Shown here piece after piece: positions 3,309 through 35,137 of a DNA stretch of 64,000 nt (the first letter of the stretch is position 1; every line of letters starts with the position of its first letter). Both the position numbers and the translations under genes were made by a program. The stretch is from a virus. Under the pieces are notes generated by a model. That model did not search any database and was not told where the DNA came from. It saw nothing but the letters and a program-made list of their open reading frames with translations. The stretch covers positions 58,795 through 122,794 of the IMG/VR virus record IMGVR_UViG_3300042311_000577. One strand, 5' to 3'.

Positions 3309-5753
3309 TTACATGATAAAAGGATTCCATGAATCTACATAAACATAACCTCCATTTGCATAAAGCTGGCCTCCAAACTTACCTTTTAATTCTTTAAGTG
3401 CTAAGTAATTTGCCTTCTCATAAGTCATACCATTTCTCATATGTTCTCTAACTATATCTTCTTTGGTAGGACCAGTTGCTCCAGTCAATGGTTTTTCAAC
3501 TCCAGTATGATACATCATTCCATAATCATATTCTGTATTAAACTGTGGAGTAACTTGATTTCTATTATACACGTTAGCCATTTGATCATTAGCCTCCATT
3601 ACAGCTCTTGTTGTATTAAAGTTTCTTTTAGTTTTAAGAGCACTACTTAAATTTTGGTCTCTAGCTTGATTTGCTAATCCTTGATTCAATATGTTAGTTC
3701 TAGCTTCATTTACAGCCATATCCATTTGTCCCTTTCTTGCATTGACTGAATTTTGAGTATTTACATTTCTTGCTTGTACATCAGCTACTGCACCTACTCC
3801 AGCATTTAATGCTTTATCTAGTAAGTCACCCATTTGTTTTTGTTTATCAGCTGTAGAACCTGCTTGTGAATACATGATTGCATTTTTCATATTATTAGCT
3901 GCTGAATTTGCAGCATGTAATTTTGCATCAAATGATTCATAAGCACCAGATGTTTTTGCATCAGGAGGAAGAACAACATTTGTACGTGCTACACCTGTAT
4001 TAGCTAAAGCGTTAGTTAAAACATTAAGTTTTGCATTAACACTCCAACGTGGTTTATCAGCAACTTGTCCTTGACTTCCATCTTGACAAACACACTGCTC
4101 TTCATTTTCAATAGGAAATTCTTTTACTTCTCCTGTTACAGGATCAGTACATCTACAAATAAGAGATTCTGTTTCTCCACCACATGATGGATCATCAGTT
4201 ATACAGTTTCCATTTTCATCTTTTTTTGCAACTTTTGGTGTACCATCTTCATTGTTTATTGTATTTCCATTTTTATCTTTACAATAACATGGTTCATCAT
4301 TAGGTTCATTAACTATATGTTCAGCAATTTGTGATTTACCTTTTACACCTTCAATACAATCTTTATATATACCACCAGCAGCAGGATCACTAATTATTGT
4401 GTTTATTGCTTTTTGTTTTGCTTCTTCCCATTTTGGATTTGGATTACCGCTAGCATCAGTTGGTCTTTGACCATCTAAATGACCTGGGAAAACTCTTACT
4501 AACATATCATCAATATCTAATGATGCTTGTATTTTTTTACAAACACCATTTGCAATAGCTACAGGATCACCTCCTCCACCGCCACCACCATGCCAAGTAA
4601 CTGCTTGACCTTTAACAATTTTGTATTGACCTTTTGTTCCTATTGAAGATGTAGAAGGAATCCAATCTGAACCAGAAGAAAGTGAACTAACTTGTTTTGA
4701 ACCAATGTTATTTACAGTAACTTGACTATCTCCGGGACCACCAAACTTAGGCATACCACCGTAAGCCATTTGTTCAGGATGATAAGGAAAATCATATCCA
4801 CCCATTTGCATTCCATAAGCCGCATATGGTATTCCTCCATAAGCCATCATACCAGGTTGTTGCATCATTTCTGGAGGAGGTATACTACCTTGCATTTGAG
4901 CCATTGATTCTGGTGAAGCTACTGGAGCTCCACTAGGCATTTGTTGTGGTGCAGCCGGAGCTTGTTGTGCTCCTTGATTCATCATTGCTTGATCTGCTTC
5001 CATAGCTTGCATAGGATTAGTTTGTTGCATTTCTTCTGCTAACATTGGATTTTGTTCTTGCGGCATTTCAGGATTAACACCTTGATTCATTGATTGGGCT
5101 AATTGATCAGCTTGTTCTTTTAACTCAGGCATTAAATCTTGTTCAGAAATTCCATTAACTTCCATATAAGGTTTAGACATAGCAGGAATACCTTGAGGAA
5201 AACCTTTCATTGATTCTTGAACTAAAGCTAAAGCACCTAACTTCATGATAAAGTTTTTGATCATTATAGTAGCAGTATCTCTTTCTAGTTTACCACTATC
5301 AGGATCTAATAATATAGACTTATATTTATTTATGTTATAAGGCTTTGCAAGTTCTGCTGGAGTATAACCACCTTTCTTAGGTGTTTTATTAAACATAGCA
5401 AGAACATTTGCATCATTTATTTTTAATGAAGCTGTGTCACTAAAGATAAAAGTATCATCAGGAAGATTTAAAGGAACACCTCCTTCATGATGTCTTTTAC
5501 CAATAATCTTTAAATGATCAGGAATTGATTGACCACTTATAGGACCAAATGCAGTTTCCCCACCTTCAGCTTCTAGATTTGCTTTATCTCTTGGTACAGC
5601 ACTTAGTGTATCTTTAACTCCTTCATAAGATCTACCATCTAATTTTCTATAATCAGCTCCACCGAAGGCACCTGGTTTTAAAGACAATGAACCATCAACC
5701 TGCTTTCCGTAAGCAGCCTTATCTAAAGGTAATTTTGTTATTTGAACTCTCAT
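3309..5753 (-). CDS. Probable virion cargo/ejection protein, 814 aa
   Basis: Long ORF with EAEGGE and GKRHHEGG motifs near the N-terminus, a Gln/Met/Pro low-complexity linker and many xxxGG motifs; located after the tail genes. Confidence 0.65.
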   Translation of the reverse strand: MRVQITKLPLDKAAYGKQVDGSLSLKPGAFGGADYRKLDGRSYEGVKDTLSAVPRDKANLEAEGGETAFGPISGQSIPDHLKIIGKRHHEGGVPLNLPDDTFIFSDTASLKINDANVLAMFNKTPKKGGYTPAELAKPYNINKYKSILLDPDSGKLERDTATIMIKNFIMKLGALALVQESMKGFPQGIPAMSKPYMEVNGISEQDLMPELKEQADQLAQSMNQGVNPEMPQEQNPMLAEEMQQTNPMQAMEADQAMMNQGAQQAPAAPQQMPSGAPVASPESMAQMQGSIPPPEMMQQPGMMAYGGIPYAAYGMQMGGYDFPYHPEQMAYGGMPKFGGPGDSQVTVNNIGSKQVSSLSSGSDWIPSTSSIGTKGQYKIVKGQAVTWHGGGGGGGDPVAIANGVCKKIQASLDIDDMLVRVFPGHLDGQRPTDASGNPNPKWEEAKQKAINTIISDPAAGGIYKDCIEGVKGKSQIAEHIVNEPNDEPCYCKDKNGNTINNEDGTPKVAKKDENGNCITDDPSCGGETESLICRCTDPVTGEVKEFPIENEEQCVCQDGSQGQVADKPRWSVNAKLNVLTNALANTGVARTNVVLPPDAKTSGAYESFDAKLHAANSAANNMKNAIMYSQAGSTADKQKQMGDLLDKALNAGVGAVADVQARNVNTQNSVNARKGQMDMAVNEARTNILNQGLANQARDQNLSSALKTKRNFNTTRAVMEANDQMANVYNRNQVTPQFNTEYDYGMMYHTGVEKPLTGATGPTKEDIVREHMRNGMTYEKANYLALKELKGKFGGQLYANGGYVYVDSWNPFIM

Positions 5754-5757
5754 GTGT

Positions 5758-8700
5758 TTATATAAATTTTATTTGACCACCAGCAGCAAGTATTTTTCCT
5801 ATCTCTTCTTGAGTAAGATCATATACTCCACCTTTCCTATATTGAGATTGCCCACCTCTTCTAAAAAATGCTGACTCACCTACATTACCAATAAAAGCAG
5901 TTGAACCTTCACCAGCTCCTTTTGAACCTTCTTTACCTTGTTCTTCATACCCACCACCTACATCTGTTTGTGTAGGATTTACTCTATTATCAGAAGTAGT
6001 TAAATCACCCATCCAATTTTGAGCATATTGATTTTTTCTTCTATTTCCTCCACCAATTAAAAGTCCTGATCCTAATTGTTTAAGATTACCAATTGCTTTT
6101 GGTCTAAGTGTTCTTGCAGTTTCAATTTCATACTTTGTAGTAAAATCTTGTGGTGTTCCTTGAACTTGTTTAGTATAATTTTCATTATAACATATATCAC
6201 CCGGTCTTGCATTTAGCACTTGTTCTTCTGTACACGGACCAGCACCAATATTTGTAACACCACCTGCATTAGGATCAAAAGGTCCTGACCCACTAAATTG
6301 CCCACCTGGATCAAATGAAGGCATATAACCTCCATAAGCCATATAGGCTGGTACATAACCACCTTCTTTTTGTACAAGATTACTATAGCCTTTTTGTTTT
6401 GCCCAGTTATCAAATGACCCATATTGTTTTTTGTTAGGTTCATTTTCCCACATTTTATATACATTACCTGCAGCTACAAGTTCTCTATTTCCAAGATCCT
6501 TTGTATTTTGTACTCTACCTGCAATTTCTTGTACACCTGCACCACTCATACCAAAACCATTACTGTTTCTTTGTTGCTGTAATTGTTGTTGTCTTTGAGC
6601 TTCAGCCATTCTTTGTTGTTCTGCAATTTTAGCTTGTTGAATATCATAAGCTTTTTTGTCAGCTACTTGTTTATCTCTATAAGAACCTTCTGACATACCA
6701 TCCATAGTACCCATCAAATTCATATCATCATTGGTAGCTGCACCTTCCCAAGGATCAGAATATTCTTGAAAATTTCTTGCCATTTCTGGTTGCTGAGTAG
6801 GAATCTCTTGCATACCTCTTGCAGGTAAACTACCAGGATTTTCATACAAACCTTCTGTAAATCTTTTTAAGTCAGTTTGATTAGGATAAATACTATTATT
6901 ACCTGTAGCCTGATTGAATTCATTTCCAACATTTTGATTCATTGCAGCATCAGGTGATGCCCCTGGTCTAGGTGCAATTTGACCTTGCTCTATTAAGTTT
7001 GTATTTTCTTTTGCAATTGCTTGTGGAGATCTATACCCTGGCATACCAGGAATACCTGCTAATAAATTTTCAGCTTCAGCAAATGTCATTTTATTTTGTG
7101 ACGGATTTGCATTTGATAAATCAGCAGTATTAGAAAAAGATTGCTGATTCTGCCAAAACTGAGAAGGTTGTAAATTAGTTTCTGAATTAGATGTTCCAGT
7201 TGCTGGATTAGCATTAACAGCACCTTTATTTCCTGTTGTACCTTGTAAAGCATTATTACCAGCACCTACTGTTATTGGTCTTGTAGGAGCTGGAGTTTGA
7301 TCTTCAATTGCATTCATTGCATCAGTCTGATCTCTCCAACTCATGTTCTCCCATGTTTCTTGATCAAATCCGTATCTTTCTGCTTGTGTTTTTCTTGGTT
7401 GTTCTGGTGCTGTAGAACTAGTTGCACTTGCATCAGATGCGGTTGTTGCGGTATTAGTAGCTCCTTTATTTTCATCACCTGGTAATACCATTGGTGCATG
7501 CCAATTACTTGTATTAGTATTAGTATTTGCTGTATTTGTATTTGCAGTATTAGTAGTTGTTGTTGCATTAGCATTTGGTTGCGTTGTTACAGTTGCATTA
7601 GGATTGTTAGGATCAAACCAACTATTTTTAACTGTTAATGTTTTTTTACCAGACCACCATGGACCTTTTTCATATTTCCATTCACTAGGCATATAACCTG
7701 GTGCAGGACCAGACGCTGTTGAACCTTGTCTTGGTTGTGGTTGACCTGATTGTCCTGGGATATATCCTCCAGGAACTTTAACTATATTTCCTTTAGCATC
7801 TCTAGGAAAATCAATTTGTCTTGCCCATCTAAAATCTTTTTTTATTGGGTTAAACATATCTAATAACTGTTGTCCAACAGATGGAGCAGTTGGATATGCA
7901 TATGATCCTCCACCTTGTGTAGTATTTTGTGTTTGAGTAGTAGTTTTATTTTGGTTATTTATTTCATTTTGTTTTTTAAGCCAGTCAGCTTCCCAAGTTT
8001 TCTTTTCTGTTTCAAGTCTTTTTTTATACTCATCTTCTGTAAGATCTTTCCAAGTAGTTGCTCCAGGATTAGTATTTGCTGTATTTACTTGACTATCATT
8101 AGGACCAGCAAATCTATATAAACCACCATTCCTAAAATAAGGATCCATTACATTTTTAGAGTCATCAGCATATGCATTGTCATATGCAACAATTGGAGAT
8201 ATCGGCATTTCATTACCTCCATAGACAAACTTCTGAAGATTACCATAAGGATCCATCTGAGGATTAGCCACAGGTCCCCCAAATTCTTTACCTGAAATAA
8301 ATCTTTGTTTAGCTTTATTCCAACTATCTAATGAGTATCCTAGTTTTAAATATTCTTCTTCAATACCAGGAGCATCCATCATAGCTGGATTATTTTTTAT
8401 AAGTTCATATAATACTTCTTCATCCGGATCAGGAAATCTAGATTTAAACTCAGAATTATAAACATTAGGATCAGTATTATCAGGAGAAGCAGCATTAGGA
8501 TCTAAAGCATCAACTTGTGCATCTTGAGGTGTCCATAGACCTGTTAAATAATCTACTTGTTCTTCAGGAAATTCTCTAATTACTCCAGCATTTGGATCCG
8601 CAGTTGCATTAAATTCTCCAGGGTTAATTACAGAACCTTTCATCCATGGATACTGAGAAGTTTCAGCTTTTCTTCTTGCAGCTTCATCTGGTGAGATAGC

Positions 8701-10089
8701 TTCTACTTCATTACCTTGTGCATCATAAACCATTTCTGTTCCAGCAGGAGCAGGATTTAATTCCATATAACCAGGATATGATTTAGTACTATTAGCATTA
8801 TTATTAAGAGTAACATTATTATTTTTTGCAGGATCTGCTGCATTATTTATTACTCTAGATTTAGTTCTTATGATTTCACCAGGATAACTTCTTGATGTAC
8901 TCCAAGATGAACTATAACCACCCGGATAACTTCCCGGCATATAACCATAAGAAGGACTTCCAAACATACTCATAGGAACTCCTTTAGCAGTCCATTCTCT
9001 TTTTCCTGTCCACCATGGTCCTTTTTTATATGTTAAATCAATCAAAGGTCCTGTTTGACCTTGTGTTGTTTGACCTGTACCTTGACCAGATGCTTGAGGA
9101 TTTTGTATAATATTTGGACTAATAACTTGTAAATAGTTAGGCATTCCTGGGACACCGAAATAACCAGCAGCTACATCTCCAAACATATTTTGGAAATCTT
9201 TTTGAGCTCTTTTCATTTCTCTACCTCTTCTTGCTTCTGGTATATTTTCAAAACCAGCACCGTGTATTTGATTCATAGGTTGTTTAAATATATTTGATAC
9301 TGTATCAGAATAAGCTTTAAGATGATGTTCACCCGCTTCAGGGTCTCCCGTTTGTACTTGCATACCATCTTGACCCATAGGTATTCCAGATTGTTGCTTT
9401 AAATTATTCATTGTGGTAAATAATTTTTTAGCAATACCCTCATTTCCTAAATCTTTTACACCTCTTCTAAATGCATTAACAAATGCTTGTCTACCATCTA
9501 TTGTGCTATCTAGAGTAGAGGATTGATTTGATTGATCTTGTTCAAGGCCTTCACTAGCTTTTCTTAAACCTTTTACAATATTTTTTACAAATTTTCTTTT
9601 ATTCACAGTTCCTCCTTTTTTTTCTTTATCTAACTCTTCATCCTCTGCAGTTACTTCCTCTTCAGTATCTTCAGCTTCTGTATCTTCATCTTCTTCTTCA
9701 TAATCTGCATAAGGATCATTCTCACTTACCCAAGGTTCATTTATGTTATATAAAGGTTCTCTTTTTACAGGTTCTACTTCTTGATCTTCAGTTTCTTGAT
9801 TGATTATATTTTCACCAGTGTCAAGAGTTTGATCCATGATAAAACTTCTAACTTCTTCAATCTTATCTAAAGCTTCTAATGGATCTAAGTCATATTCATT
9901 TTGTAGAGTGTCAATAATATCTGAGTTGTCTTTATTAGCACCGAGCTCATTCATTATAGTTTCCTCAATGTCATACTCATTCATTTTCATCTGCATCCCA
10001 TACCGTGCTTTTGGTAAACCAGTAAACTTGTTTAGTTTGCTAATAAACTTACCAGTACTTCCACCAGCTTTGTAAATTCTAACTTTCAT
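5758..10089 (-). CDS. Large low-complexity probable virion cargo protein, 1443 aa
   Basis: Long ORF with acidic, Thr/Asn and Gln tracts, a duplicated KGPWW(T/S)GK motif and many xxxGG motifs. Confidence 0.65.
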   Translation of the reverse strand: MKVRIYKAGGSTGKFISKLNKFTGLPKARYGMQMKMNEYDIEETIMNELGANKDNSDIIDTLQNEYDLDPLEALDKIEEVRSFIMDQTLDTGENIINQETEDQEVEPVKREPLYNINEPWVSENDPYADYEEEDEDTEAEDTEEEVTAEDEELDKEKKGGTVNKRKFVKNIVKGLRKASEGLEQDQSNQSSTLDSTIDGRQAFVNAFRRGVKDLGNEGIAKKLFTTMNNLKQQSGIPMGQDGMQVQTGDPEAGEHHLKAYSDTVSNIFKQPMNQIHGAGFENIPEARRGREMKRAQKDFQNMFGDVAAGYFGVPGMPNYLQVISPNIIQNPQASGQGTGQTTQGQTGPLIDLTYKKGPWWTGKREWTAKGVPMSMFGSPSYGYMPGSYPGGYSSSWSTSRSYPGEIIRTKSRVINNAADPAKNNNVTLNNNANSTKSYPGYMELNPAPAGTEMVYDAQGNEVEAISPDEAARRKAETSQYPWMKGSVINPGEFNATADPNAGVIREFPEEQVDYLTGLWTPQDAQVDALDPNAASPDNTDPNVYNSEFKSRFPDPDEEVLYELIKNNPAMMDAPGIEEEYLKLGYSLDSWNKAKQRFISGKEFGGPVANPQMDPYGNLQKFVYGGNEMPISPIVAYDNAYADDSKNVMDPYFRNGGLYRFAGPNDSQVNTANTNPGATTWKDLTEDEYKKRLETEKKTWEADWLKKQNEINNQNKTTTQTQNTTQGGGSYAYPTAPSVGQQLLDMFNPIKKDFRWARQIDFPRDAKGNIVKVPGGYIPGQSGQPQPRQGSTASGPAPGYMPSEWKYEKGPWWSGKKTLTVKNSWFDPNNPNATVTTQPNANATTTTNTANTNTANTNTNTSNWHAPMVLPGDENKGATNTATTASDASATSSTAPEQPRKTQAERYGFDQETWENMSWRDQTDAMNAIEDQTPAPTRPITVGAGNNALQGTTGNKGAVNANPATGTSNSETNLQPSQFWQNQQSFSNTADLSNANPSQNKMTFAEAENLLAGIPGMPGYRSPQAIAKENTNLIEQGQIAPRPGASPDAAMNQNVGNEFNQATGNNSIYPNQTDLKRFTEGLYENPGSLPARGMQEIPTQQPEMARNFQEYSDPWEGAATNDDMNLMGTMDGMSEGSYRDKQVADKKAYDIQQAKIAEQQRMAEAQRQQQLQQQRNSNGFGMSGAGVQEIAGRVQNTKDLGNRELVAAGNVYKMWENEPNKKQYGSFDNWAKQKGYSNLVQKEGGYVPAYMAYGGYMPSFDPGGQFSGSGPFDPNAGGVTNIGAGPCTEEQVLNARPGDICYNENYTKQVQGTPQDFTTKYEIETARTLRPKAIGNLKQLGSGLLIGGGNRRKNQYAQNWMGDLTTSDNRVNPTQTDVGGGYEEQGKEGSKGAGEGSTAFIGNVGESAFFRRGGQSQYRKGGVYDLTQEEIGKILAAGGQIKFI

Positions 10090-10106
10090 AATAATGCATT
10101 ATATAC

Positions 10107-10118
10107 TAATATACTAAA
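10107..10118 (-). promoter_or_regulatory. Late promoter-like motif TTT(A/T)GTATATTA (representative copy)
   Basis: The same motif occurs upstream of minus-strand genes at 24092, 27984, 39581, 49866, 54316 and 58041, with a variant at 32695. Confidence 0.65.
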
Positions 10119-10147: not shown

Positions 10148-12694
10148 TTAATCTAATTCTTCTACTATGTAACCTTGATCTATATATTCTTTTATTTTAC
10201 TTTTAGGTATGTCAAGTTCTATATAGTTATTAGTTGATCCACCTTTCTTTTGTTGTGGTAAGCCATTAGAACCTTCAAATGGATTTGCTAACATAGTTGC
10301 AGTACCAATTATACCAGTTGTTGGAATTGCTATACTATATAATTTTTTTAAATAATCTTTTAATTCTTTTTGATTATATATTTGTCTAAGTTCAGCAATA
10401 TCTTTTGGTATTTTACCTGCTCTATTTAATTCAATAACTTGATTATATGGCATATCCACTAAATCATCAATAGATATACCAGCTTCTTTAGAATATAAAA
10501 TTGCACTTATCCCTCTTTGTCTTGCCTCATCTGGACTACTATAATAGCTTATCAAATCATCATAAGCTTTATTTCCAGATTCTTTACCCCACTTAGTCCA
10601 ATTTTTTAAAGTTTCCTCATCTAAACTTAATTTTGGTAAATTTTCTAAGAGCTTTCTATTTTTATCATCATATAAAGATGTATGCCCATATTCATGTGAA
10701 ACAACATATTTAGAATCCGGTCTACTCAATCCAGTACTTGAAAAATCTATACCTAATTTTGTACCAGAAGCATCTGCACCTGCAGAATACGCCATTGCAT
10801 CACTTTCAAGAGTACCGGAATTTTTAGATTTAACATATCTAGGTTTTGTTTTATTTATAGCATTTATTAAATTATTTTGATAATTATGTGCATCCATAAA
10901 AGATAGTCCAGGTATTCCATTTTGAAGTCTTCTGTTATACTCACCAGAACTATAAAAATCTAATAGTTGTTGTTTACCTGCTTCAATGTTTGCTAATTGT
11001 TCTTGTGTTGGATTATAGGCTGAATTATATGTATCTTCTAAAGCTTTTCCATACTTATCAGGTTTTGCCTCTATAAATAATTCCCAATCTTCTTTTGATC
11101 TACCTGTTTTATTTAATATATCTTCATCAGGTAATTTTAAAATTTGTTCAAAATTTAAACTGTAACCCTTTTTACCAACATCATCTACAGAAGGAATAGC
11201 ATTAGAAACTTCAACAGGTGCTTTTGGCTCTACTTGTACTAGTGATTCTTTATTATAACCTCTTTTACCAAAATCAAAATTACCTGTCTCAAGTCTTTTA
11301 AGTTCATTAAATTGAGCTTCAGTAACCATACCATCTTGTTTTTTACCTGTCTCAATTAAACTGTTATAAAACTTTCTATCACTAATAGACATTTTTTTAC
11401 CATCATAACTATCTAATAGTTGCTTATAGTAATTCATGTTTTTCTTAACCATATTACCACTACTACCAGTAGGCATACCTAACATGAGTGGTCCAGGAGG
11501 TCTATCAAAAAATTGCTTTAATCTATTAGTTATAGATGTATTAGGAGAACCTGGTAATTCAGTTGGTACTTCTTTATATCCTTTTAACCAATGTTGTTTT
11601 AATAATCTTCCTTCAGATACAGGTACTTCAGCCATGTCTGCTATCCATGGTGTATATTCACCAGATGCATTAGCTGGTGATACAAATGGCATACCTTCTT
11701 TATTTACACCTGATGTTTCAAACATAACAGTTGGTCTACCATGTGCACCAGAACCAGTTTGTTCTAACATTGATATATCTTTACCTTCAACAAAATAAGG
11801 TCTTGGATATGTTGCTTGGTCAGCACTTTTAATAACTCCTGTATTTAATGCATCTTCTAAACCTTTATTACCAATCTGTCTATAAAATTTGTTTGGATCT
11901 TCTTTAAATGCCCACGGATTTATTTTATAAGCATTTTTTATAGCTGCTCCTGCAAATGGTGCTGTTTGTAAAACATCCATTCCTATTTGTCCTGCACCAC
12001 TCCAAGATGGATCTTTAGCAAAATCATATACATCAGGAGCTAATCTTGCTGCACCTTCCATAGCTCCTATTGCCATTCCAACCGGAGTCATGTAAGCAGC
12101 AGCTTTAAATACTGGATTATTAACTACTGCAGCATTTCCTTCTATAGCAGCTTGATTGATTGCCTCTTGATTTATTCTATCAGCCTCTTCTTTGCTAGAT
12201 GCATATATAGGTTCACCTGTAATTACATTAGTACCTTTAGCTTTACCAAAAGTTGCTGGATCAAATCCTGCATCTATAATTGATTGTCTATATGTATCTT
12301 CAGACTCCCATTTATTTCTCAGTGCTTCCTGTTGTTTTTTTTCTTTTTCTCTTGATGCTTTAGTTTTATCATCTAGTTTGGTTACTGATTGTGGTTGAAT
12401 TTTATCTAGTCTAATTAAAGCTCCTGATTCTGGATCAAATCCCCATTTACCACTATATAATCTATCTTTTATTTGATCATTGTATTCTGGAGTTATTAAA
12501 TTACGTACTTCATTATTTGTAACATGCATGTCCCAAGCAGCTACACCATCAATATATTTTTTATCATTTTTTAATGTATATAACTTAGCACATTTAGTTC
12601 CGTTCCAATAAGTTCCAGTAGGACAACTTTTTTTATCACCCCCTTTTGCAAATTTATTTAATGATGGTATACTTGTTATTCTATACTTTTTCAT
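10148..12694 (-). CDS. Multidomain probable cargo protein with C-terminal zincin-like (HExxH) domain, 848 aa
   Basis: VSHEYGH followed by YYSSPDEARQR; begins ...FAKGG and ends ...QKKGG plus a YIVEELD module. Confidence 0.65.
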   Translation of the reverse strand: MKKYRITSIPSLNKFAKGGDKKSCPTGTYWNGTKCAKLYTLKNDKKYIDGVAAWDMHVTNNEVRNLITPEYNDQIKDRLYSGKWGFDPESGALIRLDKIQPQSVTKLDDKTKASREKEKKQQEALRNKWESEDTYRQSIIDAGFDPATFGKAKGTNVITGEPIYASSKEEADRINQEAINQAAIEGNAAVVNNPVFKAAAYMTPVGMAIGAMEGAARLAPDVYDFAKDPSWSGAGQIGMDVLQTAPFAGAAIKNAYKINPWAFKEDPNKFYRQIGNKGLEDALNTGVIKSADQATYPRPYFVEGKDISMLEQTGSGAHGRPTVMFETSGVNKEGMPFVSPANASGEYTPWIADMAEVPVSEGRLLKQHWLKGYKEVPTELPGSPNTSITNRLKQFFDRPPGPLMLGMPTGSSGNMVKKNMNYYKQLLDSYDGKKMSISDRKFYNSLIETGKKQDGMVTEAQFNELKRLETGNFDFGKRGYNKESLVQVEPKAPVEVSNAIPSVDDVGKKGYSLNFEQILKLPDEDILNKTGRSKEDWELFIEAKPDKYGKALEDTYNSAYNPTQEQLANIEAGKQQLLDFYSSGEYNRRLQNGIPGLSFMDAHNYQNNLINAINKTKPRYVKSKNSGTLESDAMAYSAGADASGTKLGIDFSSTGLSRPDSKYVVSHEYGHTSLYDDKNRKLLENLPKLSLDEETLKNWTKWGKESGNKAYDDLISYYSSPDEARQRGISAILYSKEAGISIDDLVDMPYNQVIELNRAGKIPKDIAELRQIYNQKELKDYLKKLYSIAIPTTGIIGTATMLANPFEGSNGLPQQKKGGSTNNYIELDIPKSKIKEYIDQGYIVEELD

Positions 12695-12696
12695 AA

Positions 12697-15600
12697 TTAA
12701 ATTTCTTCAAATGTATAACCTAAACTTTCTAAATAGTTTTTAGTAGCTTCATCTACTTGATCACCTAATTCATAATTTACTACACCGCCCTTTTTATAAT
12801 CAGATAATAGTTCATATGGATCTCTATCTGGATTTTCTTCCCATTCAGGTGTTTGATGATTATAAGCGGCATTATTTATATTTCCTATTTTAAACCATTC
12901 AGTATAATACGGTGGTTTTTTTAGTATAGCATTATTAAAGACATAAAAAACTTCTTTATCATATAAGTTTTGTGATACCTTTTTAAAATGATTTTGCATT
13001 TCAGCAGGACTCATTAATAAGTCTATACTATTTGCAGATCTTAAATATACTGTATTTACATCACCTAATTTTCTTTTGTTAAGCATATTTGCTATATCAT
13101 AATCAAATGACATTGGTATAGATTCTACATCTAATGGTAATGCTGATTTCCCATGTTTCTTGAATGTTTTAATTTCTGATGGTATATCTGTAGCAATTAC
13201 TTTAATATTTTTCTTTTTAATATTCGGATTACTTGCAAGTTCATATGTAGATACACCAGCTAAAGCAGGATTAGAGTTTCCTAAACCTGAACCAATATCA
13301 ATAATTACAGAGTTAGCTCCTGCATGATCTGCAAAGAATAATTCAGAGTCTCTGTTTCTTTTAACATCTGTTCTATTCATTATATCCTGACCTTTCTCTG
13401 GGAATAGTCTATATTTTGTATAATCATTGAGCTGTCTATTTAGAACATCTTTATCATTAACACCCTGCCCTTGAATATTTTTATAAGGATTTTCATTTAG
13501 TGATTCAGGATTAACTAAGTTATATACAGAAGGATTATCTGAACCTTTAGTAAAGTAATTTAATGATTGACCTAAATCAGTATCTTTCCAATCTTTTAAT
13601 CTTACATTTGATTTAGGTTCTACTATAGGTAGATTTAAATTTCCAGAACTGTTCATTCTATTTTGAGCTTGAACTTTTTCAATATTCTGACCTTGTGCAA
13701 ATGTACTTGCTGCATTATTTGATATAGGTTGAGAAGATGGTTTTCTAGTTATAGATGGTGCAGGTATATTAGACTGTTCATAAATGTTACCTTTCATCAT
13801 ATTAACTAGCATAGGATTAAGATCACTTTTATTTGCTTTAGGTGCATTACTAGTTTGTACTACTGGTGCAGCAACATTATATGCTTTTGGATCAAATGAC
13901 ATTAATTCTCCTGTTATAGGATTTTTTAAACCAAAAGTTGTTTCTTTTGGTTTTTGTTTTTTTGGTGTTTCTTTTTTAGGAGTTGTTTTTTGAGGCTTTG
14001 GTCTTTCATATGTTTTTGTATTCCAAATAGCTCCTGTCATTAAATTAGAAGATGAACTAGGTTTTTCAGGGCCGGCTGCATATTTTGCAGATAATCTTTT
14101 AGTAGGTTGACTAGGTTTGCTTTGACTTTTCTTATTTGCAAATAGTTCTGGAAATCTATAAATCAAACCTTCTCTGGTACCTATCCTTTCTCTAACTAGT
14201 TGGTCTAAACTGTAACCTTTATCAACTAGATCACCAACCATTTTATTATATCTCTTATCGTCATTCTCATCTTTAGCAACAGAAGTTTTTGGTTCACCAA
14301 ATTCACCAGCTAATAATCTTTTATGTAGTTCAATGTTTTTAGTATAACTACCATCTGTTAATCCTTTCTTTTTAGCTTGAGACCATGGAGTACCTGTAAT
14401 GTTTTCCCATTGTTCAGAAATTGTACCACCTCCTGCAAATTTATTCAATGTAGATATAGCACCACCTACTTTAGAATACTGTGGTATATTCTCATCACCT
14501 TCTTGTTGAGGTTTATTTTTAGAAATATTTTGTAGCATCCAAAGAATCTCTTCATCATTGAAATCTCTTCTTAAATCATTAATTGGTTGCATTGGTTGCC
14601 AATTTTCAGAATCTCTTTCTTTGTTTATATAATTTTGAAATATTTCAGGAGTTATCTGTTCAGTAAATGGATCATATACACCTTCTTTTTTTGCAGTCAT
14701 TCTAATTTCACCAAGTCTTGCTCTAGTTTCATGAGGTGATGATACATAATCATGAGCAAAAGATTTCCAATTTTCTGGTGCTTTTTGCTTTCTAATTTTT
14801 GCATTTTTAGTATCCCAATCTACCCAGTCTTTTAATTTTGTATTAAATTCAGGATCTTCAGGATTTTCACCCATTTCAATCATTTGATTTTTCCAATACT
14901 CTTCACCTTTTGGTAAATAGTTTCCTTTTTTTTGAGCTATTTTATAATCTTCATTATCTTTCCAATTAGAACCTCTATGTGTAGTAATATACATTGAATC
15001 AGAAGGTGGTATTACTCTATTATGCCATTCTGGAGAATCTTGCGGAAATCTTGGATCTTTATATAACATCCAATCTGGATAGTTTTGTATTGTATCATTA
15101 TCATTAACATACCAACTATTTTGTGTACCAGCAGCCATGTTAACAAGTTCAGGTGTTGCATTAGACAATTTTACACCCATATTATATGCAGGATGATCAG
15201 CTTTAAATAACTCTCTTGGTCTATCTGATGAATGGATTAATTCATGTGTATATAAAGTTGGACCATATTCATATCCTCCTGGAAATACTTCAACTTGTCC
15301 TGTATCACTAAAAGACCAGGCTGCTGGTTGTATTCCATCTGACTGTTCTTCTGATTCTTTTTCCATTATGTTTAATGGAGGTAAGTCAGCTAGATTTTTC
15401 TTTCTTAAACTTGTTAAGTAGTCTGCATTTTTTTGATTACCTTGAAAACTATTTAATACCATTTGATTATACATAGGTGAATCATGCCAGTCTTTAACAA
15501 ACTGCAAACCTTCTTCATAATATTTAGGTTCATTTACCTTAGCAGTTTCAATTGCTTGTAATCTTTCTTGTTCTCTATTATATGCATCTATATCAGTTAA

Positions 15601-16425
15601 TTCTTGATCTGTAAGATCTTTAGTTGTAATAGGTTCATAATAAAGTTCTCCTGTTTCAGTTTTTGGTAAATCAAAAGGTTCTTCTGAAGGATTTAAAATT
15701 TCAATAGATTCATTTTGAGTTACTGGTTTTTCATTTTTATTTCTTCTTAATTTTTTAGATTTTTTATCTTTTGAACCACCGTCTATAAATCTATTTAAAG
15801 AAGGTATAGAAGGATCATCTATCTCTTCAACTATATAACCACCTTCAACATATTTTCTTATTTGATCTTTAGTAAGTTCTGCTTCTATAAAACCTGGAGA
15901 AACATCTTTATAATGTTCTGCAAAATAAGCAGCATCTTCATCTGAATCAAATCTCATGGCTTCATTAGATTCTGGACCATAGTCACCTAACATTAACTGA
16001 CCATTTTCATCTTGAATTTGAGGAACAGCATAGTTATCTATACTTGCCATATAGTGTGTACCTGTATTTCCATTTTCAAATTGATATGGATTATCAGGTA
16101 GGTTAATCATTCTTTTTGCAGCAGGATTTCCAAACTCATTAGCATAAGCTAGTCTAGCTTTCATCATACCAGTCATACCATCCTTTTCACCACCATTATC
16201 AAAGTACATGGATGTTGGATCATATATTTTCTTCTTGTAATTCTTTTTTTTAAGCAAAGGATTTTTTGCAAACAATCTATTTGTAGCTTGAAGATTACTA
16301 GAAAACTTTTTACTACCTCCTTTTTTCATCTGAGGCTTATCTAAGTCTGAATCTTTTTTTTTAGCTTCTGGTTCCTTCTTGCCTAAATCATTAAGTGCTT
16401 GAAGAAAAAATTTTTTATTATACAT
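12697..16425 (-). CDS. Multidomain probable cargo protein with zincin-like and SAM-methyltransferase-like segments, 1242 aa
   Basis: THELIH...YVSSPHETRAR (zincin-like); IIDIGSGLG...VIATDI (Rossmann MTase motif I/II-like). Confidence 0.65.
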   Translation of the reverse strand: MYNKKFFLQALNDLGKKEPEAKKKDSDLDKPQMKKGGSKKFSSNLQATNRLFAKNPLLKKKNYKKKIYDPTSMYFDNGGEKDGMTGMMKARLAYANEFGNPAAKRMINLPDNPYQFENGNTGTHYMASIDNYAVPQIQDENGQLMLGDYGPESNEAMRFDSDEDAAYFAEHYKDVSPGFIEAELTKDQIRKYVEGGYIVEEIDDPSIPSLNRFIDGGSKDKKSKKLRRNKNEKPVTQNESIEILNPSEEPFDLPKTETGELYYEPITTKDLTDQELTDIDAYNREQERLQAIETAKVNEPKYYEEGLQFVKDWHDSPMYNQMVLNSFQGNQKNADYLTSLRKKNLADLPPLNIMEKESEEQSDGIQPAAWSFSDTGQVEVFPGGYEYGPTLYTHELIHSSDRPRELFKADHPAYNMGVKLSNATPELVNMAAGTQNSWYVNDNDTIQNYPDWMLYKDPRFPQDSPEWHNRVIPPSDSMYITTHRGSNWKDNEDYKIAQKKGNYLPKGEEYWKNQMIEMGENPEDPEFNTKLKDWVDWDTKNAKIRKQKAPENWKSFAHDYVSSPHETRARLGEIRMTAKKEGVYDPFTEQITPEIFQNYINKERDSENWQPMQPINDLRRDFNDEEILWMLQNISKNKPQQEGDENIPQYSKVGGAISTLNKFAGGGTISEQWENITGTPWSQAKKKGLTDGSYTKNIELHKRLLAGEFGEPKTSVAKDENDDKRYNKMVGDLVDKGYSLDQLVRERIGTREGLIYRFPELFANKKSQSKPSQPTKRLSAKYAAGPEKPSSSSNLMTGAIWNTKTYERPKPQKTTPKKETPKKQKPKETTFGLKNPITGELMSFDPKAYNVAAPVVQTSNAPKANKSDLNPMLVNMMKGNIYEQSNIPAPSITRKPSSQPISNNAASTFAQGQNIEKVQAQNRMNSSGNLNLPIVEPKSNVRLKDWKDTDLGQSLNYFTKGSDNPSVYNLVNPESLNENPYKNIQGQGVNDKDVLNRQLNDYTKYRLFPEKGQDIMNRTDVKRNRDSELFFADHAGANSVIIDIGSGLGNSNPALAGVSTYELASNPNIKKKNIKVIATDIPSEIKTFKKHGKSALPLDVESIPMSFDYDIANMLNKRKLGDVNTVYLRSANSIDLLMSPAEMQNHFKKVSQNLYDKEVFYVFNNAILKKPPYYTEWFKIGNINNAAYNHQTPEWEENPDRDPYELLSDYKKGGVVNYELGDQVDEATKNYLESLGYTFEEI

Positions 16426-21836: not shown

Positions 21837-22849
21837 TACAATACTCTTATATTATTACGGTTTCTATAGTAAACATTATTTGGTGAATAACTTTTAAACA
21901 TATCATAATACTTACCATATTGAGCTTTTCTATTAGCCATCCAAAGTTTTTCAAGTTCCTTGAAGTTAGGAGTATTAACTAAACTTAAAGCTTGGTTTCT
22001 AGCTGCTTTTAATTTAGAAGCAATATACTGAAGTTTCTGACCAACATCTTCTCCGTTCATTAATAAATTTTCAAGTATTCTTTCTTTTAATGCATACTCA
22101 TAGTATTCATTAAGAAGTTCATGATCAGGAACAAGTAAATTACCATTATCATCTTCTAAAGTAGATTGATAATTAAGATATACTTTACCTTCTTTAAAAG
22201 TTGTATTTAAAAAACCATGTTTTATCCATCCTTCATTTACAGTATTATAATAAAGATTTGGACAATCACATTCAATTTCTTGACTTGTCTTCATCCTAAG
22301 TGGATAAAGATTTCTATAAACTCTTGTTGTAGAAGGATTTATGATTTGTATTAGTTCATATGCTTCACCTTTACAATTTAAAAATACTCTTGGTTTTATA
22401 GCAGTATCACCATATGGTTGGCCAAGAGAATGAGTTACACATATACCTTCTTGTCCACTATAACAACAAGGTTGATTTACTGGAGCTTCACAAGAATTCA
22501 AATAAGTTTCACTTGGAAATTCTCTGTATGGTACTTCTTGAATATTAGTTCCTCCGGCAAAACCATCATAACCAACATAACCCACATTATTTTGGAAGTC
22601 CCCGCAAATTAATGCATAATTAAATGCATAAAAATTATCAGGCAGTTTAACTTTATTATGGGTGACATCAAGTATAATTTCCTTTTGTTGATTTATTCTC
22701 AACCCTAAATCATAATTAATTTTTCTAACTAGTTTGATTAACTGTTGAGGCTCAATCATATTTTCTAAAGCAAATGTGTACAAATCAATTGTAACATCTT
22801 CTAGAAGTTGATCAAAGGTTCTATATTTCAGAGTATAATTAAAATCCAT
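21836..22849 (-). CDS. Tail tubular / ring protein, 337 aa
   Basis: GKVYLNYQSTLEDDNGNLLVPD...EYYEYA resembles crAss-like ring proteins; synteny with the stabilisation gene. Confidence 0.6.
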   Translation of the reverse strand: MDFNYTLKYRTFDQLLEDVTIDLYTFALENMIEPQQLIKLVRKINYDLGLRINQQKEIILDVTHNKVKLPDNFYAFNYALICGDFQNNVGYVGYDGFAGGTNIQEVPYREFPSETYLNSCEAPVNQPCCYSGQEGICVTHSLGQPYGDTAIKPRVFLNCKGEAYELIQIINPSTTRVYRNLYPLRMKTSQEIECDCPNLYYNTVNEGWIKHGFLNTTFKEGKVYLNYQSTLEDDNGNLLVPDHELLNEYYEYALKERILENLLMNGEDVGQKLQYIASKLKAARNQALSLVNTPNFKELEKLWMANRKAQYGKYYDMFKSYSPNNVYYRNRNNIRVL

Positions 22850-30436: not shown

Positions 30437-30639
30437 TATTTTACAAATTTCTGTAAGTTATTATACCTATCTTTTCCCCAAGTATCAACTTTAGGAGTTT
30501 CTTTTACAGTTGGTTTTTGTGTTTTTAATGAAGATTCATATTGTGATACACAATTATTACAAACTGTTCTTCCATTAGATGCTGTCTTTCTTTGACATCC
30601 GCAAGATAATTTTTTTCCACAATTTGGACATGCACTCAT
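30436..30639 (-). CDS. Small Cys-rich (possible zinc-binding) protein, 67 aa
   Basis: CPNCG..LSCGCQ...CNNC; AACCAACAA leader; TAATG-coupled to the next gene. Confidence 0.65.
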   Translation of the reverse strand: MSACPNCGKKLSCGCQRKTASNGRTVCNNCVSQYESSLKTQKPTVKETPKVDTWGKDRYNNLQKFVK

Positions 30640-30660
30640 AATTTGTTGGTTTTTAAGTGT

Positions 30661-31203
30661 TTAACAATTTTTACAATCTAATTTATTTAAAAGTTTAACT
30701 GCATAATTAAATAATGTCATACCTTCTTGGTTTTCATGACAAGTTTCTACTTTAGCTTCTGCAGCTTCTAAAAACATTTTTATCATATGTAACTGTTTCA
30801 GCCTTTCTTTTACTTTAGCTGGTGGATCACAATCTGATATACTTATATTACAAAGAATTTTCTCATACTGATTAAGTGCACAAGTCATTCTTAAATGATT
30901 GTACTCTACATAGACTTTACATTCTGGGTCTATTGCGTACTTAATATTATATATACCATCTGGTAAATTTACAAAACTTGAATCACAATTTTCAGTCTGA
31001 AGTCCTAAATCACATGCCGTAAGTGTAGGAGTAGAGTCTGGTACAAATGCTACTTCAGCAGTATATTTAAATCCCGGTGCTACTATGTATAGTTTAGGAT
31101 TAACTATACCCACCAATGCAGAATACACACTTGTATCAAATATCTTCATTACACAAGCATTTGATACAGTAGGGATTTCTAAACTTAATACATGATTTGC
31201 CAT
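30661..31203 (-). CDS. Probable virion structural protein, 180 aa
   Basis: LPDGIYNIKY Ig-like strand motif and a helical C-terminus; structural context. Confidence 0.55.
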   Translation of the reverse strand: MANHVLSLEIPTVSNACVMKIFDTSVYSALVGIVNPKLYIVAPGFKYTAEVAFVPDSTPTLTACDLGLQTENCDSSFVNLPDGIYNIKYAIDPECKVYVEYNHLRMTCALNQYEKILCNISISDCDPPAKVKERLKQLHMIKMFLEAAEAKVETCHENQEGMTLFNYAVKLLNKLDCKNC

Positions 31204-31214
31204 AAGATAATAAT

Positions 31215-31254
31215 AAAAAAAGGAGAGGAGAAATTATTATCTCACTCTCCTTTT
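31215..31254 (-). terminator. Intrinsic terminator
   Basis: AAAAGGAGAG...CTCTCCTTTT inverted repeat downstream of the 461-aa gene. Confidence 0.7.
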
Positions 31255-31274
31255 GAGTTGTTTATAATTTAATA

Positions 31275-32660: not shown

Positions 32661-32725
32661 TGTTTTTTGTTTTAGTTAATAAATATATATAGTATAATAT
32701 AATCAAAAGTTTTTAAATATCCAAA

Positions 32726-33244
32726 TTATTTTAAGAAAAGTAATTTATATTTAGTAGAATTAATTGAATCTTTTACTAAATCTAAGTTATTTACTATTTC
32801 TGAATAAGGTAACATACCTTGTAGTTTATTTACCATAGCATAAATATCTCTTAGGTAAGCCACACCATCTGCTACAGTATCTAAGGTTCTTGGAGAGACT
32901 TCAGAATACTTTAATATTTTTTCTGCAGCTCCTTGATATCCTTCAATAAGACTATCAGCAAAATCTGGTAAAGCATCATATAATTTATTAAGAGCTTTGT
33001 GAGCTGCATAAGAACCATCACCTGTTACTTTAAGATGTAGCTTATGAAAACTTGTTCTTGCATTCATAAGTTCTGAAACACATGCAGATACCATAGTATC
33101 TAATGAACTACCACCAACTCCTGTATCTGGAGTAGGTTGTGGTTTAGCTGGTTCTTCTTTTGGTTGAGTTACTATAACCTGTGGTCTGCTTATTGTTCTA
33201 GCAGGCTCAGGGTTTCTTTTTAAAAGTCTTGATTTTGTTTCCAT
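32726..33244 (-). CDS. Ferritin/Dps-like protein (DUF5856-like), 172 aa
   Basis: HKLHL...SYAAHKALNKLYD...DSLIEGYQG...YKLLFL four-helix-bundle signature. Confidence 0.75.
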   Translation of the reverse strand: METKSRLLKRNPEPARTISRPQVIVTQPKEEPAKPQPTPDTGVGGSSLDTMVSACVSELMNARTSFHKLHLKVTGDGSYAAHKALNKLYDALPDFADSLIEGYQGAAEKILKYSEVSPRTLDTVADGVAYLRDIYAMVNKLQGMLPYSEIVNNLDLVKDSINSTKYKLLFLK

Positions 33245-33246
33245 AA

Positions 33247-33945
33247 TTAGTTATTTCTTTCAGCACCTTCTGTACCTCTAGAGAATTGATTACCTGATTC
33301 AATATCTCCAGCAATTATACTAGCTGCTTCATCTATTAATAATTCTATTATATCATCTTTAAATTCACATTCTATATTTGCTGTTGAAGCAAGATTGGTA
33401 TAAGGATCTACACAACCATCTATTTGTATCTTAATGGGCTGTCTATAGTAGATAAGCTCAGCTTCATCAATGTTAAATTCTCCGTTTGTGTAGATATTTA
33501 CTTGACCTCCTTTTAATGTTGCAAAAGTTTCTGCCCATTCAAAACTTGGTTGTTTTGCTTTATCTCTAAGAAGTTCTCTTAAGTTGCCTTCTTCAGCAAG
33601 ATATACCATCATAGGTCTTTTATCACAACAACCCTTTCTAGTTAGAACATCAACTCTTTTCCATTGCAAATAGTCATTAGGAAGAGAACTTGTATAATAA
33701 TATTCTTTATCTGCTATAGTTAAATCAAATGTCTGAAGTAAAATTTGTAAATCATCCTTTCTTCTTGTTGAACCCTCATCACCTTCTTTAGTAATATTAA
33801 TACCATGAAGTTGTCTACGGGTCCATTCAACCTGAGCTTTATTAAAAGCCTCAACAATTTGCCAGCAAGTTATATTATCATAATCTTGACTGTCAAGCTT
33901 ATTAAGTCTTTGTTTTATCTTTATAGTGATAGTACTATTAAGCAT
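33247..33945 (-). CDS. Probable head-tail connector/ring protein, 232 aa
   Basis: LNKLDSQ...FNKAQ...YYRQP...ELLIDEA pattern; located downstream of the capsid module. Confidence 0.55.
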   Translation of the reverse strand: MLNSTITIKIKQRLNKLDSQDYDNITCWQIVEAFNKAQVEWTRRQLHGINITKEGDEGSTRRKDDLQILLQTFDLTIADKEYYYTSSLPNDYLQWKRVDVLTRKGCCDKRPMMVYLAEEGNLRELLRDKAKQPSFEWAETFATLKGGQVNIYTNGEFNIDEAELIYYRQPIKIQIDGCVDPYTNLASTANIECEFKDDIIELLIDEAASIIAGDIESGNQFSRGTEGAERNN

Positions 33946-33948
33946 CTC

Positions 33949-34074
33949 TTATTTTTTTTTCTTTTTAAGAATTCTTGTAAGAACATCAGCTCTTGTAATT
34001 TTATTTTTAGGAGGTGCTACTGCAGCTAATTTAGCATTTTTAGTAGTACTTTTTGATGTGTTACTTTTTTTCAT
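33949..34074 (-). CDS. Tiny Lys-rich protein (~41 aa)
   Basis: Likely start is the ATG at 34074 (MKKSNTSK...), right after the previous stop; ends KKKKK. Confidence 0.55.
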   Translation of the reverse strand: MKKSNTSKSTTKNAKLAAVAPPKNKITRADVLTRILKKKKK

Positions 34075-34075
34075 T

Positions 34076-34270
34076 TTATCCTCTTTTAATATTTTTCCAC
34101 ATTGCAGCGGCAGCAATTCTTTTACCTTTTTCACCACCACCTGCGGCAGCAGCTACATCAGCAAAACTTTTACCTTTCTTACCAATATCTTTTCCAGCTC
34201 TTGCTTTTTTAGCAACTGATGACTTTTCTTTTTTTGTTAGTCCAGCTGAAGGTTTCTTTTTAGTTGCCAT
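34076..34270 (-). CDS. Small Lys/Ala-rich basic protein, 64 aa
   Basis: Tightly packed ORF ending GKRIAAAAMWK. Confidence 0.7.
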   Translation of the reverse strand: MATKKKPSAGLTKKEKSSVAKKARAGKDIGKKGKSFADVAAAAGGGEKGKRIAAAAMWKNIKRG

Positions 34271-34272
34271 GA

Positions 34273-34500
34273 CTATCCTCCGTATAAAGGTCTTTCACCA
34301 CACTTACCATTAGATAGTCTTGCTAATCCAGGAGGGCATCCAGTTTTTACTGCTTCTACCATACTTGGTTTAGCTCCACCTTCTTTCATTTGCATTGGAT
34401 TAGTAGTAGCATTATATCCAGGCATACCAACAATAGTTTGTCCACCATTTTTCATTTTTTTCATGGCACCACCACATTTAGCGCAACCTAACTTTTTCAT
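34273..34500 (-). CDS. Small basic protein with xxxGG motifs, 75 aa
   Basis: Contains AKCGG, MKNGG, MKEGG and PLYGG. Confidence 0.7.
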   Translation of the reverse strand: MKKLGCAKCGGAMKKMKNGGQTIVGMPGYNATTNPMQMKEGGAKPSMVEAVKTGCPPGLARLSNGKCGERPLYGG

Positions 34501-34502
34501 AA

Positions 34503-34844
34503 TTATTTCTTTTTAGATTTAACAACACCACCTCTTTTTTGAGTTTTTAATTTATTCTCAAGACCTTTTGTAAATTTTGCGGCAGGTGTATTTTGAGCAG
34601 CTTCTTCTGCTTTTTTAGCAGCAGCTTTTTCTGCAGATTTTTTTGAAGCATCCTTAAATAATTTATTACCTAATGCAGCAATACCTGTAGAAAGAAGTCT
34701 ACCAGCCCATTTTGCACCACCACAATATACACAACCATGACTATTAGGATTACCATCAGGACAATAGTTTGGTGGACATTTTTTTGCACCACCTTCTTTC
34801 ATTTTTGCAACTGACTTAACAGTTTTTTTATTTGTTGTTTTCAT
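34503..34844 (-). CDS. Small basic protein with xxxGG motifs, 113 aa
   Basis: Contains MKEGG and QKRGG; Lys/Ala-rich. Confidence 0.7.
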   Translation of the reverse strand: MKTTNKKTVKSVAKMKEGGAKKCPPNYCPDGNPNSHGCVYCGGAKWAGRLLSTGIAALGNKLFKDASKKSAEKAAAKKAEEAAQNTPAAKFTKGLENKLKTQKRGGVVKSKKK

Positions 34845-34855
34845 TGTATATTAAA

Positions 34856-35137
34856 TTAACAGTTCCACTTTCTTAAAGACTTATTGATCCTTGAATCAGG
34901 ATCATTAGCTGTCTTAGAGCTTGTTAGTTTTTTCTTCATCCCACTCATCCTAGCACAAAAAGATTTTCTTCTTTTAGCAGACTTACTATCTGGATCAAGT
35001 TTAGAAGGTTTTGTAGTTACAGCTGTCTTAAGTTTACTACCAGGATTAGCTGCTCTATAACTTGCCACTCCTTTAGCATTAAGACCTCCTTCTGAATTCT
35101 TACCTTCTTTTCTTTGCCATGCTGGAGACTTTGCCAT
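34856..35137 (-). CDS. Small basic phage protein (DUF6321-like), 93 aa
   Basis: AWQRKEGKN..GGLNAKG...RRKSFCARM...SRINKSLRKWNC. Confidence 0.7.
   Translation of the reverse strand: MAKSPAWQRKEGKNSEGGLNAKGVASYRAANPGSKLKTAVTTKPSKLDPDSKSAKRRKSFCARMSGMKKKLTSSKTANDPDSRINKSLRKWNC

Follow-up and report, generated by a model that had tools for sequence, protein, structure and literature searches.

In phage T4, unrelated internal head proteins have in common a short N-terminal peptide, the capsid targeting sequence, and these tags are removed by the prohead protease gp21 at (L/I)xE. The adenovirus protease, adenain, cuts at (M/I/L)XGG-X both in large virion precursors and in small basic core proteins. 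Here we describe Gly-Gly (GG) peptides that mark the ends and internal joints of the probable cargo proteins of a crAss-like phage, encoded in a window of 64,000 nucleotides (positions 58,795 to 122,794 of IMG/VR record IMGVR_UViG_3300042311_000577, a complete 122,794-bp virus genome with direct terminal repeats). At the equivalent position, crAss001 encodes cargo proteins C1 (gp45) and C2 (gp46) and RNA-polymerase-associated giants, all of which were detected in the virion, and gp45 is described as a single protein spanning capsid to tail barrel (PMC10172136). Polyvalent proteins carry several unrelated effector modules, including cell-wall hydrolases and methyltransferases, in one virion-delivered polypeptide (PMC5512222). 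In the portions of these papers on which we draw, no joint motif is described for crAss001 and no conserved joint peptide or mini-domain for polyvalent proteins, and the word 'linker' is absent from the main text of the latter paper (PMC10172136, PMC5512222). In contrast, the joints are the conserved part of the proteins described here.

The window comes from an uncultured crAss-like phage. As in crAss001, the cargo genes directly follow the muzzle gene: in order, they encode proteins of 1242, 848, 1443 and 814 amino acids (aa) and one of 1146 aa (1084 aa inside the window), and three giant proteins of 2145, 4028 and 2020 aa follow further downstream, outside the window. Two cargo proteins precede the RNA polymerase giants in crAss001, compared with five here. 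Judging from gene position, the 1242-, 848-, 1443- and 814-aa proteins are probably packed into the particle and injected. PHROGs and Pfam gave no family for the cargo proteins (a match of the 848-aa protein to H-NS was below threshold and was disregarded), and sequence-level comparison with solved structures gave no link for the 1242-aa or 848-aa protein or for the profile of class D, the class of the 814-aa protein (see below).

The original prediction was that a motif ending in GG, recurring in these proteins and in two small open reading frames (ORFs), routes proteins into the head, cuts the large ones into separate effectors, or both. Every instance that it listed is present: MAYGG (twice), PKFGG, GKFGG and YANGG in the 814-aa protein, ten sites in the 1443-aa protein, FAKGG and QKKGG in the 848-aa protein, six sites in the 1242-aa protein, and MKNGG, MKEGG (twice), PLYGG (at an extreme C-terminus) and QKRGG in the small ORFs at 34273-34500 and 34503-34844. 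Compared with whole-protein shuffles, [MFY]xxGG occurs 4 times against 0.8 expected in the 814-aa protein (p=0.0135), 7 against 1.4 in the 1443-aa protein (p=0.001) and 6 against 0.5 in the 1242-aa protein (p=0.0005). The 848-aa protein (1 against 0.6) is not significant; its two sites are in its N-terminal tag and just before its C-terminal mini-domain. By the same measure there is no enrichment in the muzzle (1 against 1.2), portal (1 against 0.2), capsid protein (1 against 0.6) or terminase, and the three giants have 0 sites in 8193 residues. When shuffling was confined to blocks of 20-50 residues, which keeps local composition, the four cargo proteins together had 17 [MFYW]xxGG sites against 3.5-3.8 expected, and 0 of 2000 shuffles reached 17. 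Thus, Gly-rich local composition cannot explain the enrichment, which holds against composition-matched shuffles as had been proposed. Eight consecutive glycines (HGGGGGGGGD, residues 389-396, 4566-4589, minus strand) inflate the raw GG count of the 814-aa protein.

Because the motif had been chosen after inspection, we tested it on other phages. Eighty loci were fetched around related muzzle genes and 50 that differed by >3% in the muzzle tail were kept; 11 loci with no muzzle ORF recognizable by pattern and one near-identical to the window's phage were dropped, and 49 were counted. In these loci, whose mutual relatedness means that the counts are not independent, the motif occurs 448 times in cargo ORFs against 83.8±9.3 expected, compared with 42 against 26.9 in upstream structural ORFs and 88 against 59.8 in the muzzle. 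One relative of 564 aa contains it up to 11 times. Across 1064 cargo GG sites, counted from the first Gly, the profile is [LI] at -6, P at -5, F/M/Y at -3 (431/1064) and Q/A/K at -2 (577/1064), with Y/E and then I/T/V on the downstream side. Rather than a motif by itself, GG is part of longer conserved peptides. The pattern at cargo ends and joints is real and apparently undescribed: word searches of open-access texts found no paper joining Crassvirales cargo with Gly-Gly.

The peptides are concentrated at protein ends. GG is found in the last 45 residues of 81/87 cargo proteins and 44/279 controls; for the first 45 residues, the counts are 68/130 and 1/279, respectively. In this clade, the ends of the cargo proteins define classes that are independent of length (300 to 2500 aa): class A runs from MYNKK... 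to ...LGYTFEEI, class B from MAKYRITSIP... to ...GGYIVEEE, class C from MKKKVRIYKA... to ...AAGGQIEFI, and class D from MLRKVRIKKLPQARTGYQV... to ...YPFIL. The window has one of each (1242-aa, A; 848-aa, B; 1443-aa, C; 814-aa, D). The N-terminal tag is a basic strand (KVRIYK, KYRITSIP) followed by LPKAxxG or SLNKFxxGG, and it is common to classes B, C and D and to tiny basic proteins, with mostly GxG or TGY in place of GG in classes C and D. A further type of joint is a linker rich in aromatic residues, Met, Gly and Pro, such as MAYGGY.

Another of these peptides is a strand-helix-strand mini-domain of 25-30 residues, of the form ...(GG)-x-YIELELTPEEIEEYRKGGYIVEDI-(SVPSLTK-xx-GG) with the consensus ...ELTxEEIxxYxxGGYIVEEI, which is found at C-termini and between modules. 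GG usually stands before it (37/59 copies), in its hinge (37/59) and after it (30/44), and the second Gly of the hinge is invariant (59/59). A regular expression for the mini-domain gave 111 hits in cargo (53 C-terminal and 58 internal, the latter including some spurious ones) and 9 in 155,767 control residues. Four copies are in the window, at residues 179-203 and the C-terminus of the 1242-aa protein and at the C-termini of the 848- and 1443-aa proteins; a six-frame scan of the genome gave no fifth copy with a profile that was itself built including these four. AlphaFold models the core confidently (block means of 94 and 87; helix at residues 23-31), with flanks at about 50. Compared with 1.84 billion proteins, the profile of 59 distinct copies matched 1119 cluster representatives (clusters at 50% identity) at E<=1e-3, 508 of them at E<=1e-10. 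The best 150 of the 1119 matches each have 2-4 copies; in total, 125 copies are terminal and 244 internal. Of these 150 proteins, 51 have a zincin-like HExxH, compared with about 36% reported for polyvalent proteins (PMC5512222). Pfam does not contain the mini-domain (one copy of 59 touches DUF7210 at E 0.0045, and DUF7210 itself has no match in the genome), and Foldseek against the PDB gave four rows, all with E>4, and no fold match. The mini-domain is a new and widespread family.

We found no cultured phage with the mini-domain: INPHARED has no match for it or for the 1443-aa protein, and a 34-kb stretch of crAss001 has no significant copy (best E 0.08). Flavobacterium phage Fpv1 is without the motif. 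In Cellulophaga phage phi4:1, gp040 (L102, 24549-27236), annotated as a virion protein by tandem mass spectrometry, has 14 GG, including four [FY]QxGG, and its N-terminal stretch IPSNSITMKGV also occurs in a cargo protein of locus L022; the stretch of phi4:1 that we examined has no significant mini-domain match.

Gene ends can take the place of in-frame joints and vice versa. Within the 1242-aa protein, an internal joint (...GYIVEEID-DPSIPSLNRFIDGG...) equals the C-terminus of the 848-aa protein followed by its N-terminus (E 3e-4 and 0.004). A distant relative carries the same in-frame joint, and other relatives have a stop codon after ...EELD, ...SVPSLNQ or ...KLNKFI, that is, at or within it. 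Module borders also tend to fall near GG: the distinct endpoints of BLAST segments in common with relatives lie <=6 residues from GG in 9/19, 8/29, 8/42 and 1/7 cases, against chance fractions of 0.19, 0.13, 0.08 and 0.03, with the first three 2-2.5 times enriched. The cassette at residues 31-79 of the 1242-aa protein matches residues 410-459, 519-596 or 224-270 of relatives, and about half of the 40 high-scoring segments among the matches listed (of 67) end at residues 79-82. We considered and rejected DNA repeats as recombination sites; copies of the joint are only 76-79% identical over 34 nt, and there is no long exact repeat.

The modules between the joints vary. Among 45 relatives scanned, which share the mini-domain, payloads at Pfam level include SET (5), VanY (4), SLT (3) and tail lysozyme (3), with amidase, YkuD and others once each. 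HExxH modules are present in 21/46 loci, with 26 instances in 126,166 cargo residues and 0 in 155,767 control residues. In the other 25/46, which do have the joints, the part of the cargo region that was sequenced (about 10 kb at each locus) lacks HExxH; a module encoded farther downstream would escape. In the window, hints of payloads consist of motifs, namely HELIH and DxGxGxG in the 1242-aa protein and HEYGH in the 848-aa protein, and weak protein-atlas leads.

The same peptides are found on tiny basic proteins encoded near the capsid gene. Five or six tiny ORFs of 62-113 aa, mostly Lys-rich, lie in a row between a capsid-proximal 340-aa gene and the tail genes (34076-35555, minus strand). 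A similar run of variable content is present in relatives (20-33% Lys+Arg) and includes a conserved 93-aa protein (MAKSPAWQRKEGKN...) and a MAIKKTTTKK... protein. Many of their tiny proteins end in ...KKGG[SA]VKxKKK, start with CxxCGG, or start with a basic stretch and LPKAQxG. In 127 tiny basic ORFs from the 80 loci, a crudely de-replicated set picked by size and charge only that may hold some non-genes, GG occurs 197 times against 111.3±9.0 expected and [KRM][KRQEN]GG 53 times against 10.7±3.3, and 32/127 have GG and a basic tail at the C-terminal end. Because the tiny ORFs of relatives are enriched in the motif, and KKGG with a basic tail is common to both groups, the predicted link between cargo and tiny basic proteins stands. 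The products of the tiny ORFs may be DNA-condensing internal proteins.

The 814-aa protein provides a possible connection to crAss001. The model of its conserved N-terminal class D domain has a confidence (predicted local distance difference test, pLDDT) of 81, with residues 1-42 disordered. Foldseek with this model gave nothing. In an exhaustive alignment against 48,161 chains, the first match was 7qog_M, the portal-bound domain of crAss001 gp45 (residues 425-552), with Z 5.3, a root-mean-square deviation of 5.7 and 19% identity over 99 residues; the next had Z 4.9. Sequence methods give no support for this link: neither the 814-aa protein nor the rest of the genome matches PF25725, the crassvirus cargo protein 1 domain, and hhalign gave a probability of 0.6%. 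Since the score is modest and sequence methods give no confirmation, we regard the homology suggested by the model as probable only. gp45 is itself GG-rich, with 21 GG sites; AFGG opens the portal-bound domain and MFAYGG comes just after it. Within the domain, AFGG, QGG and EGG (residues 426-428, 433-435 and 446-448) are spanned by 126 residues modelled as one chain in the virion.

We suspect, with about an even chance of being right, that the GG peptides are hinge-and-handle peptides of a modular (polyvalent) cargo system. Cargo proteins would be assembled from exchangeable modules by means of a few conserved peptides at joints and ends, each module or protein being bounded by one or more of an N-terminal tag, a mini-domain, a KKGG and basic stretch, or a MAYGGY-type linker. 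The glycines could serve as hinges and turns, and the conserved peptides around them as non-catalytic handles that let any payload load into the procapsid and later thread out through the portal and tail. Payloads would then need no loading signal of their own, and the tiny basic proteins, which bear the same handles, would probably be loaded likewise. Such a role in loading and threading would not require cutting. It agrees with the part of the original prediction that concerned routing: the motif marks cargo ends and joints and is shared with the tiny basic proteins, as an address signal would be. The joint and end peptides, present on every variable cargo protein and on the tiny basic proteins, are the first sequence feature that could be a loading signal in crAss-like phages, which inject several megadaltons of protein. 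The joints also give a simple rule for parsing huge unannotated cargo proteins into modules.

Several points weigh against the hinge-and-handle reading. No tag has an identified binding partner, and the counts come from related phages, so that conservation may partly reflect common descent. Interchangeable ends and joints fit cutting equally well or better, as does the presence in one polypeptide of cell-wall hydrolases and methyltransferases, which likely act in different compartments. Cutting by a protease of an unrecognized family, by a host protease or, where they occur, by zincins borne by the cargo is conceivable. The joints could be maturation cleavage sites, with a protease from phage or host, or else the zincin modules, cutting at or near GG, removing tags and freeing effectors. 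The polyvalent-protein paper predicts that such peptidases process polyvalent proteins (PMC5512222). The many copies of the motif in the 564-aa relative, the confinement of HExxH to cargo relative to controls, and the tiny protein that ends exactly in ...YGG would also suit this explanation. However, the complete genome has no match at E<=1 to the clan CE adenain-type cysteine proteases Peptidase_C5 and C48 (PF00770, PF02902), of which a very distant or new one would escape, or to the prohead proteases S77 and S78 (PF03420, PF04586), nor does it have a match at that threshold to the C39 peptidases of the double-glycine leader type (PF03412), a search that covered the phage genome only. We rejected self-processing by zincins as a general mechanism, given the 25/46 relatives without HExxH. 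GG is replaced at about one third of equivalent positions, and none of 87 cargo proteins ends in GG. As in adenovirus, a di-glycine with an upstream hydrophobic residue occurs on both large and small basic proteins, but here that residue is three places before the first Gly and not two as at adenain P4, where Q/A/K predominate instead; its position is unlike the adenain and PLpro consensus. As in T4, a short N-terminal tag is found on unrelated proteins, but tags here are also internal and C-terminal, and the searches found no prohead protease. Because the protease families are absent, zincins are optional, GG is variable and no cargo ends in it, an obligatory GG-specific protease is disfavored. 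In crAss001, too, GG sites lie within a domain modelled as a single chain. Its virion bands range from 15 to >300 kDa, and those of 150, 270 and >300 kDa are, by size alone, as expected for uncut giants; moderate discrepancies in band size were put down to modification or mobility (PMC6235969). No processing, loading signal or protease is named in the portions of the crAss001 papers that we cite (PMC10172136, PMC6235969). Nothing shows that cargo is cut at the joints, and the predicted cutting at GG is unsupported. We consider cleavage at the joints rather doubtful as the explanation of these peptides.

A combination seems to us slightly less probable still, and on the whole unlikely: the mini-domain and N-terminal tags could be general address labels for loading and injection, with labels removed or modules freed by a protease of an unknown family. 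If so, these phages would be natural, reprogrammable protein-injection devices, and there would be a new virion maturation protease. It is improbable, in our view, that the joints are mere flexible linkers and recombination seams, retained with shuffled modules and carrying no loading or processing signal. Homology breakpoints near GG, cassettes that change position, the variability of GG and the predicted disorder of the N-terminal tag and mini-domain flanks are what one would expect of linkers. However, conservation is at the protein level only, as the low identity of the joint DNA copies indicates, and the peptides have a defined sequence profile beyond composition. They are also common to unrelated tiny basic proteins, and the mini-domain is predicted to fold confidently and is kept across 1119 clusters. 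Lastly, KKGG and basic tails could be DNA hooks that tie cargo and tiny proteins to the genome or neutralize charge, the glycines permitting close approach to the backbone. Lys/Arg runs follow GG in residues 217-235 of the 1242-aa protein, in residues 159-175 of the 1443-aa protein and at the C-termini of the 32 tiny ORFs noted above, and the tiny proteins are rich in Lys and Arg. This idea accounts for just one peptide type out of four, though; the mini-domain has an acidic sequence (ELTxEEIxxY...VEE), Glu/Asp or Tyr comes after many GG sites, and no DNA-binding fold was found. We therefore think that DNA hooks are a very improbable account of the peptides.

Table. Positions in the window of the cargo proteins, their joint and end peptides, and neighboring genes
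Feature	Position	Strand	Remark
Cargo protein, 1242 aa, class A	12697..16425	-	string of modules; 6 [MFY]xxGG sites
QMKKGG and basic stretch, 1242-aa residues 32-45	16291..16332	-	opens cassette 31-79; variably placed in relatives
MYFDNGG, 1242-aa residues 73-79	16189..16209	-	closes cassette 31-79
Internal mini-domain copy, 1242-aa residues 179-203, FIEAELTKDQIRKYVEGGYIVEEID	15817..15891	-	
Joint peptide DPSIPSLNRFIDGG and basic run, 1242-aa residues 204-235	15721..15816	-	resembles N-terminal tag of 848-aa protein
HELIH (HExxH), zincin-like module, 1242-aa residues 394-398	15232..15246	-	motif only; weak protein-atlas lead to LPD23
Joint YSKVGGAISTLNKFAGGG, 1242-aa residues 650-667	14425..14478	-	
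DxGxGxG, 1242-aa residues 1043-1049	13279..13299	-	as in S-adenosylmethionine-dependent methyltransferases; motif only, family searches gave no confirmation
C-terminal YKKGG and mini-domain, 1242-aa residues 1209-1242	12700..12801	-	
Cargo protein, 848 aa, class B	10148..12694	-	
N-terminal tag of 848-aa protein, MKKYRITSIPSLNKFAKGG	12638..12694	-	
HEYGH (HExxH), 848-aa residues 667-671	10682..10696	-	motif; atlas structural neighbors are M48, SprT and ATLF-like clusters, all below threshold
C-terminal QKKGG and mini-domain, 848-aa residues 814-848	10151..10255	-	
Cargo protein, 1443 aa, class C	5758..10089	-	7 [MFY]xxGG sites
N-terminal tag of 1443-aa protein, MKVRIYKAGGSTGKFISKLNKFTGLPKARYGMQM	9985..10089	-	
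EKKGG and basic stretch, 1443-aa residues 155-175	9565..9627	-	type common to tiny basic proteins
Linker with KEFGG, FVYGG, FRNGG, 1443-aa residues 600-662	8104..8292	-	
Linker with QKEGG, MAYGG, FDPGG, NAGG, 1443-aa residues 1240-1280	6250..6372	-	
C-terminal FRRGG, YRKGG and variant mini-domain of 1443-aa protein	5761..5868	-	ends AAGGQIKFI
Cargo protein, 814 aa, class D	3309..5753	-	probable counterpart of crAss001 cargo protein 1
N-terminal tag, 814-aa residues 1-44	5622..5753	-	predicted disorder; pLDDT <50 at residues 1-35 and 37-42
Folded domain, 814-aa residues 45-212	5118..5621	-	conserved EAEGG, HEGG, KKGG turns; pLDDT mostly >90
Linker with MAYGG, AAYGMQMGG, MAYGG, PKFGG, 814-aa residues 298-342	4728..4862	-	
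C-terminal GKFGG, YANGG of 814-aa protein	3312..3386	-	class D end ...NPFIM
Tiny protein, 75 aa	34273..34500	-	20% Gly; CxxCGG, MKNGG, MKEGG; ends exactly in YGG
Tiny basic protein, 113 aa	34503..34844	-	MKEGG; C-terminal QKRGG and basic tail
Muzzle gene, 1803 aa	16425..21836	-	PF25731 crAss_MUZ, E 2.2e-34; cargo block begins downstream
Ring protein 1 gene	21836-22849	-	
Crassvirus capsid protein gene	36650-38269	-	PF23898
Three giant ORFs, 2020, 4028 and 2145 aa	G000:C1:34021-58617, outside window		presumably RNA-polymerase-associated cargo

The portal (39648-42398) and large terminase genes were identified with PHROGs and, like the muzzle, ring protein 1 and capsid genes, are on the minus strand. 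Between the portal and capsid genes is a gene for an acidic 419-aa protein (38298-39557, minus strand) with an isoelectric point of 4.7, 20% Asp+Glu and a C-terminal tail that is basic. No family matched this protein, whose location and make-up would suit a scaffolding protein. The word 'scaffold' is absent from the main text of the crAss001 structure paper (PMC10172136).

The 1146-aa protein (2-3253, minus strand, continuing outside the window) has no match to PF25712. It starts with MAQYPLGVTDFIPDYQPYQPDF, and this class E start is kept in relatives (MATYLQGVTDYIP...) and has a faint likeness to the start of crAss001 C2. A pair of cysteines follows GG, in the arrangement GG-x(1-3)-CPxGxY/W...C, in several relatives, in the two small ORFs and in the 848-aa protein (residues 24-35; 12590-12625, minus strand); it may form a small disulfide or metal knuckle.

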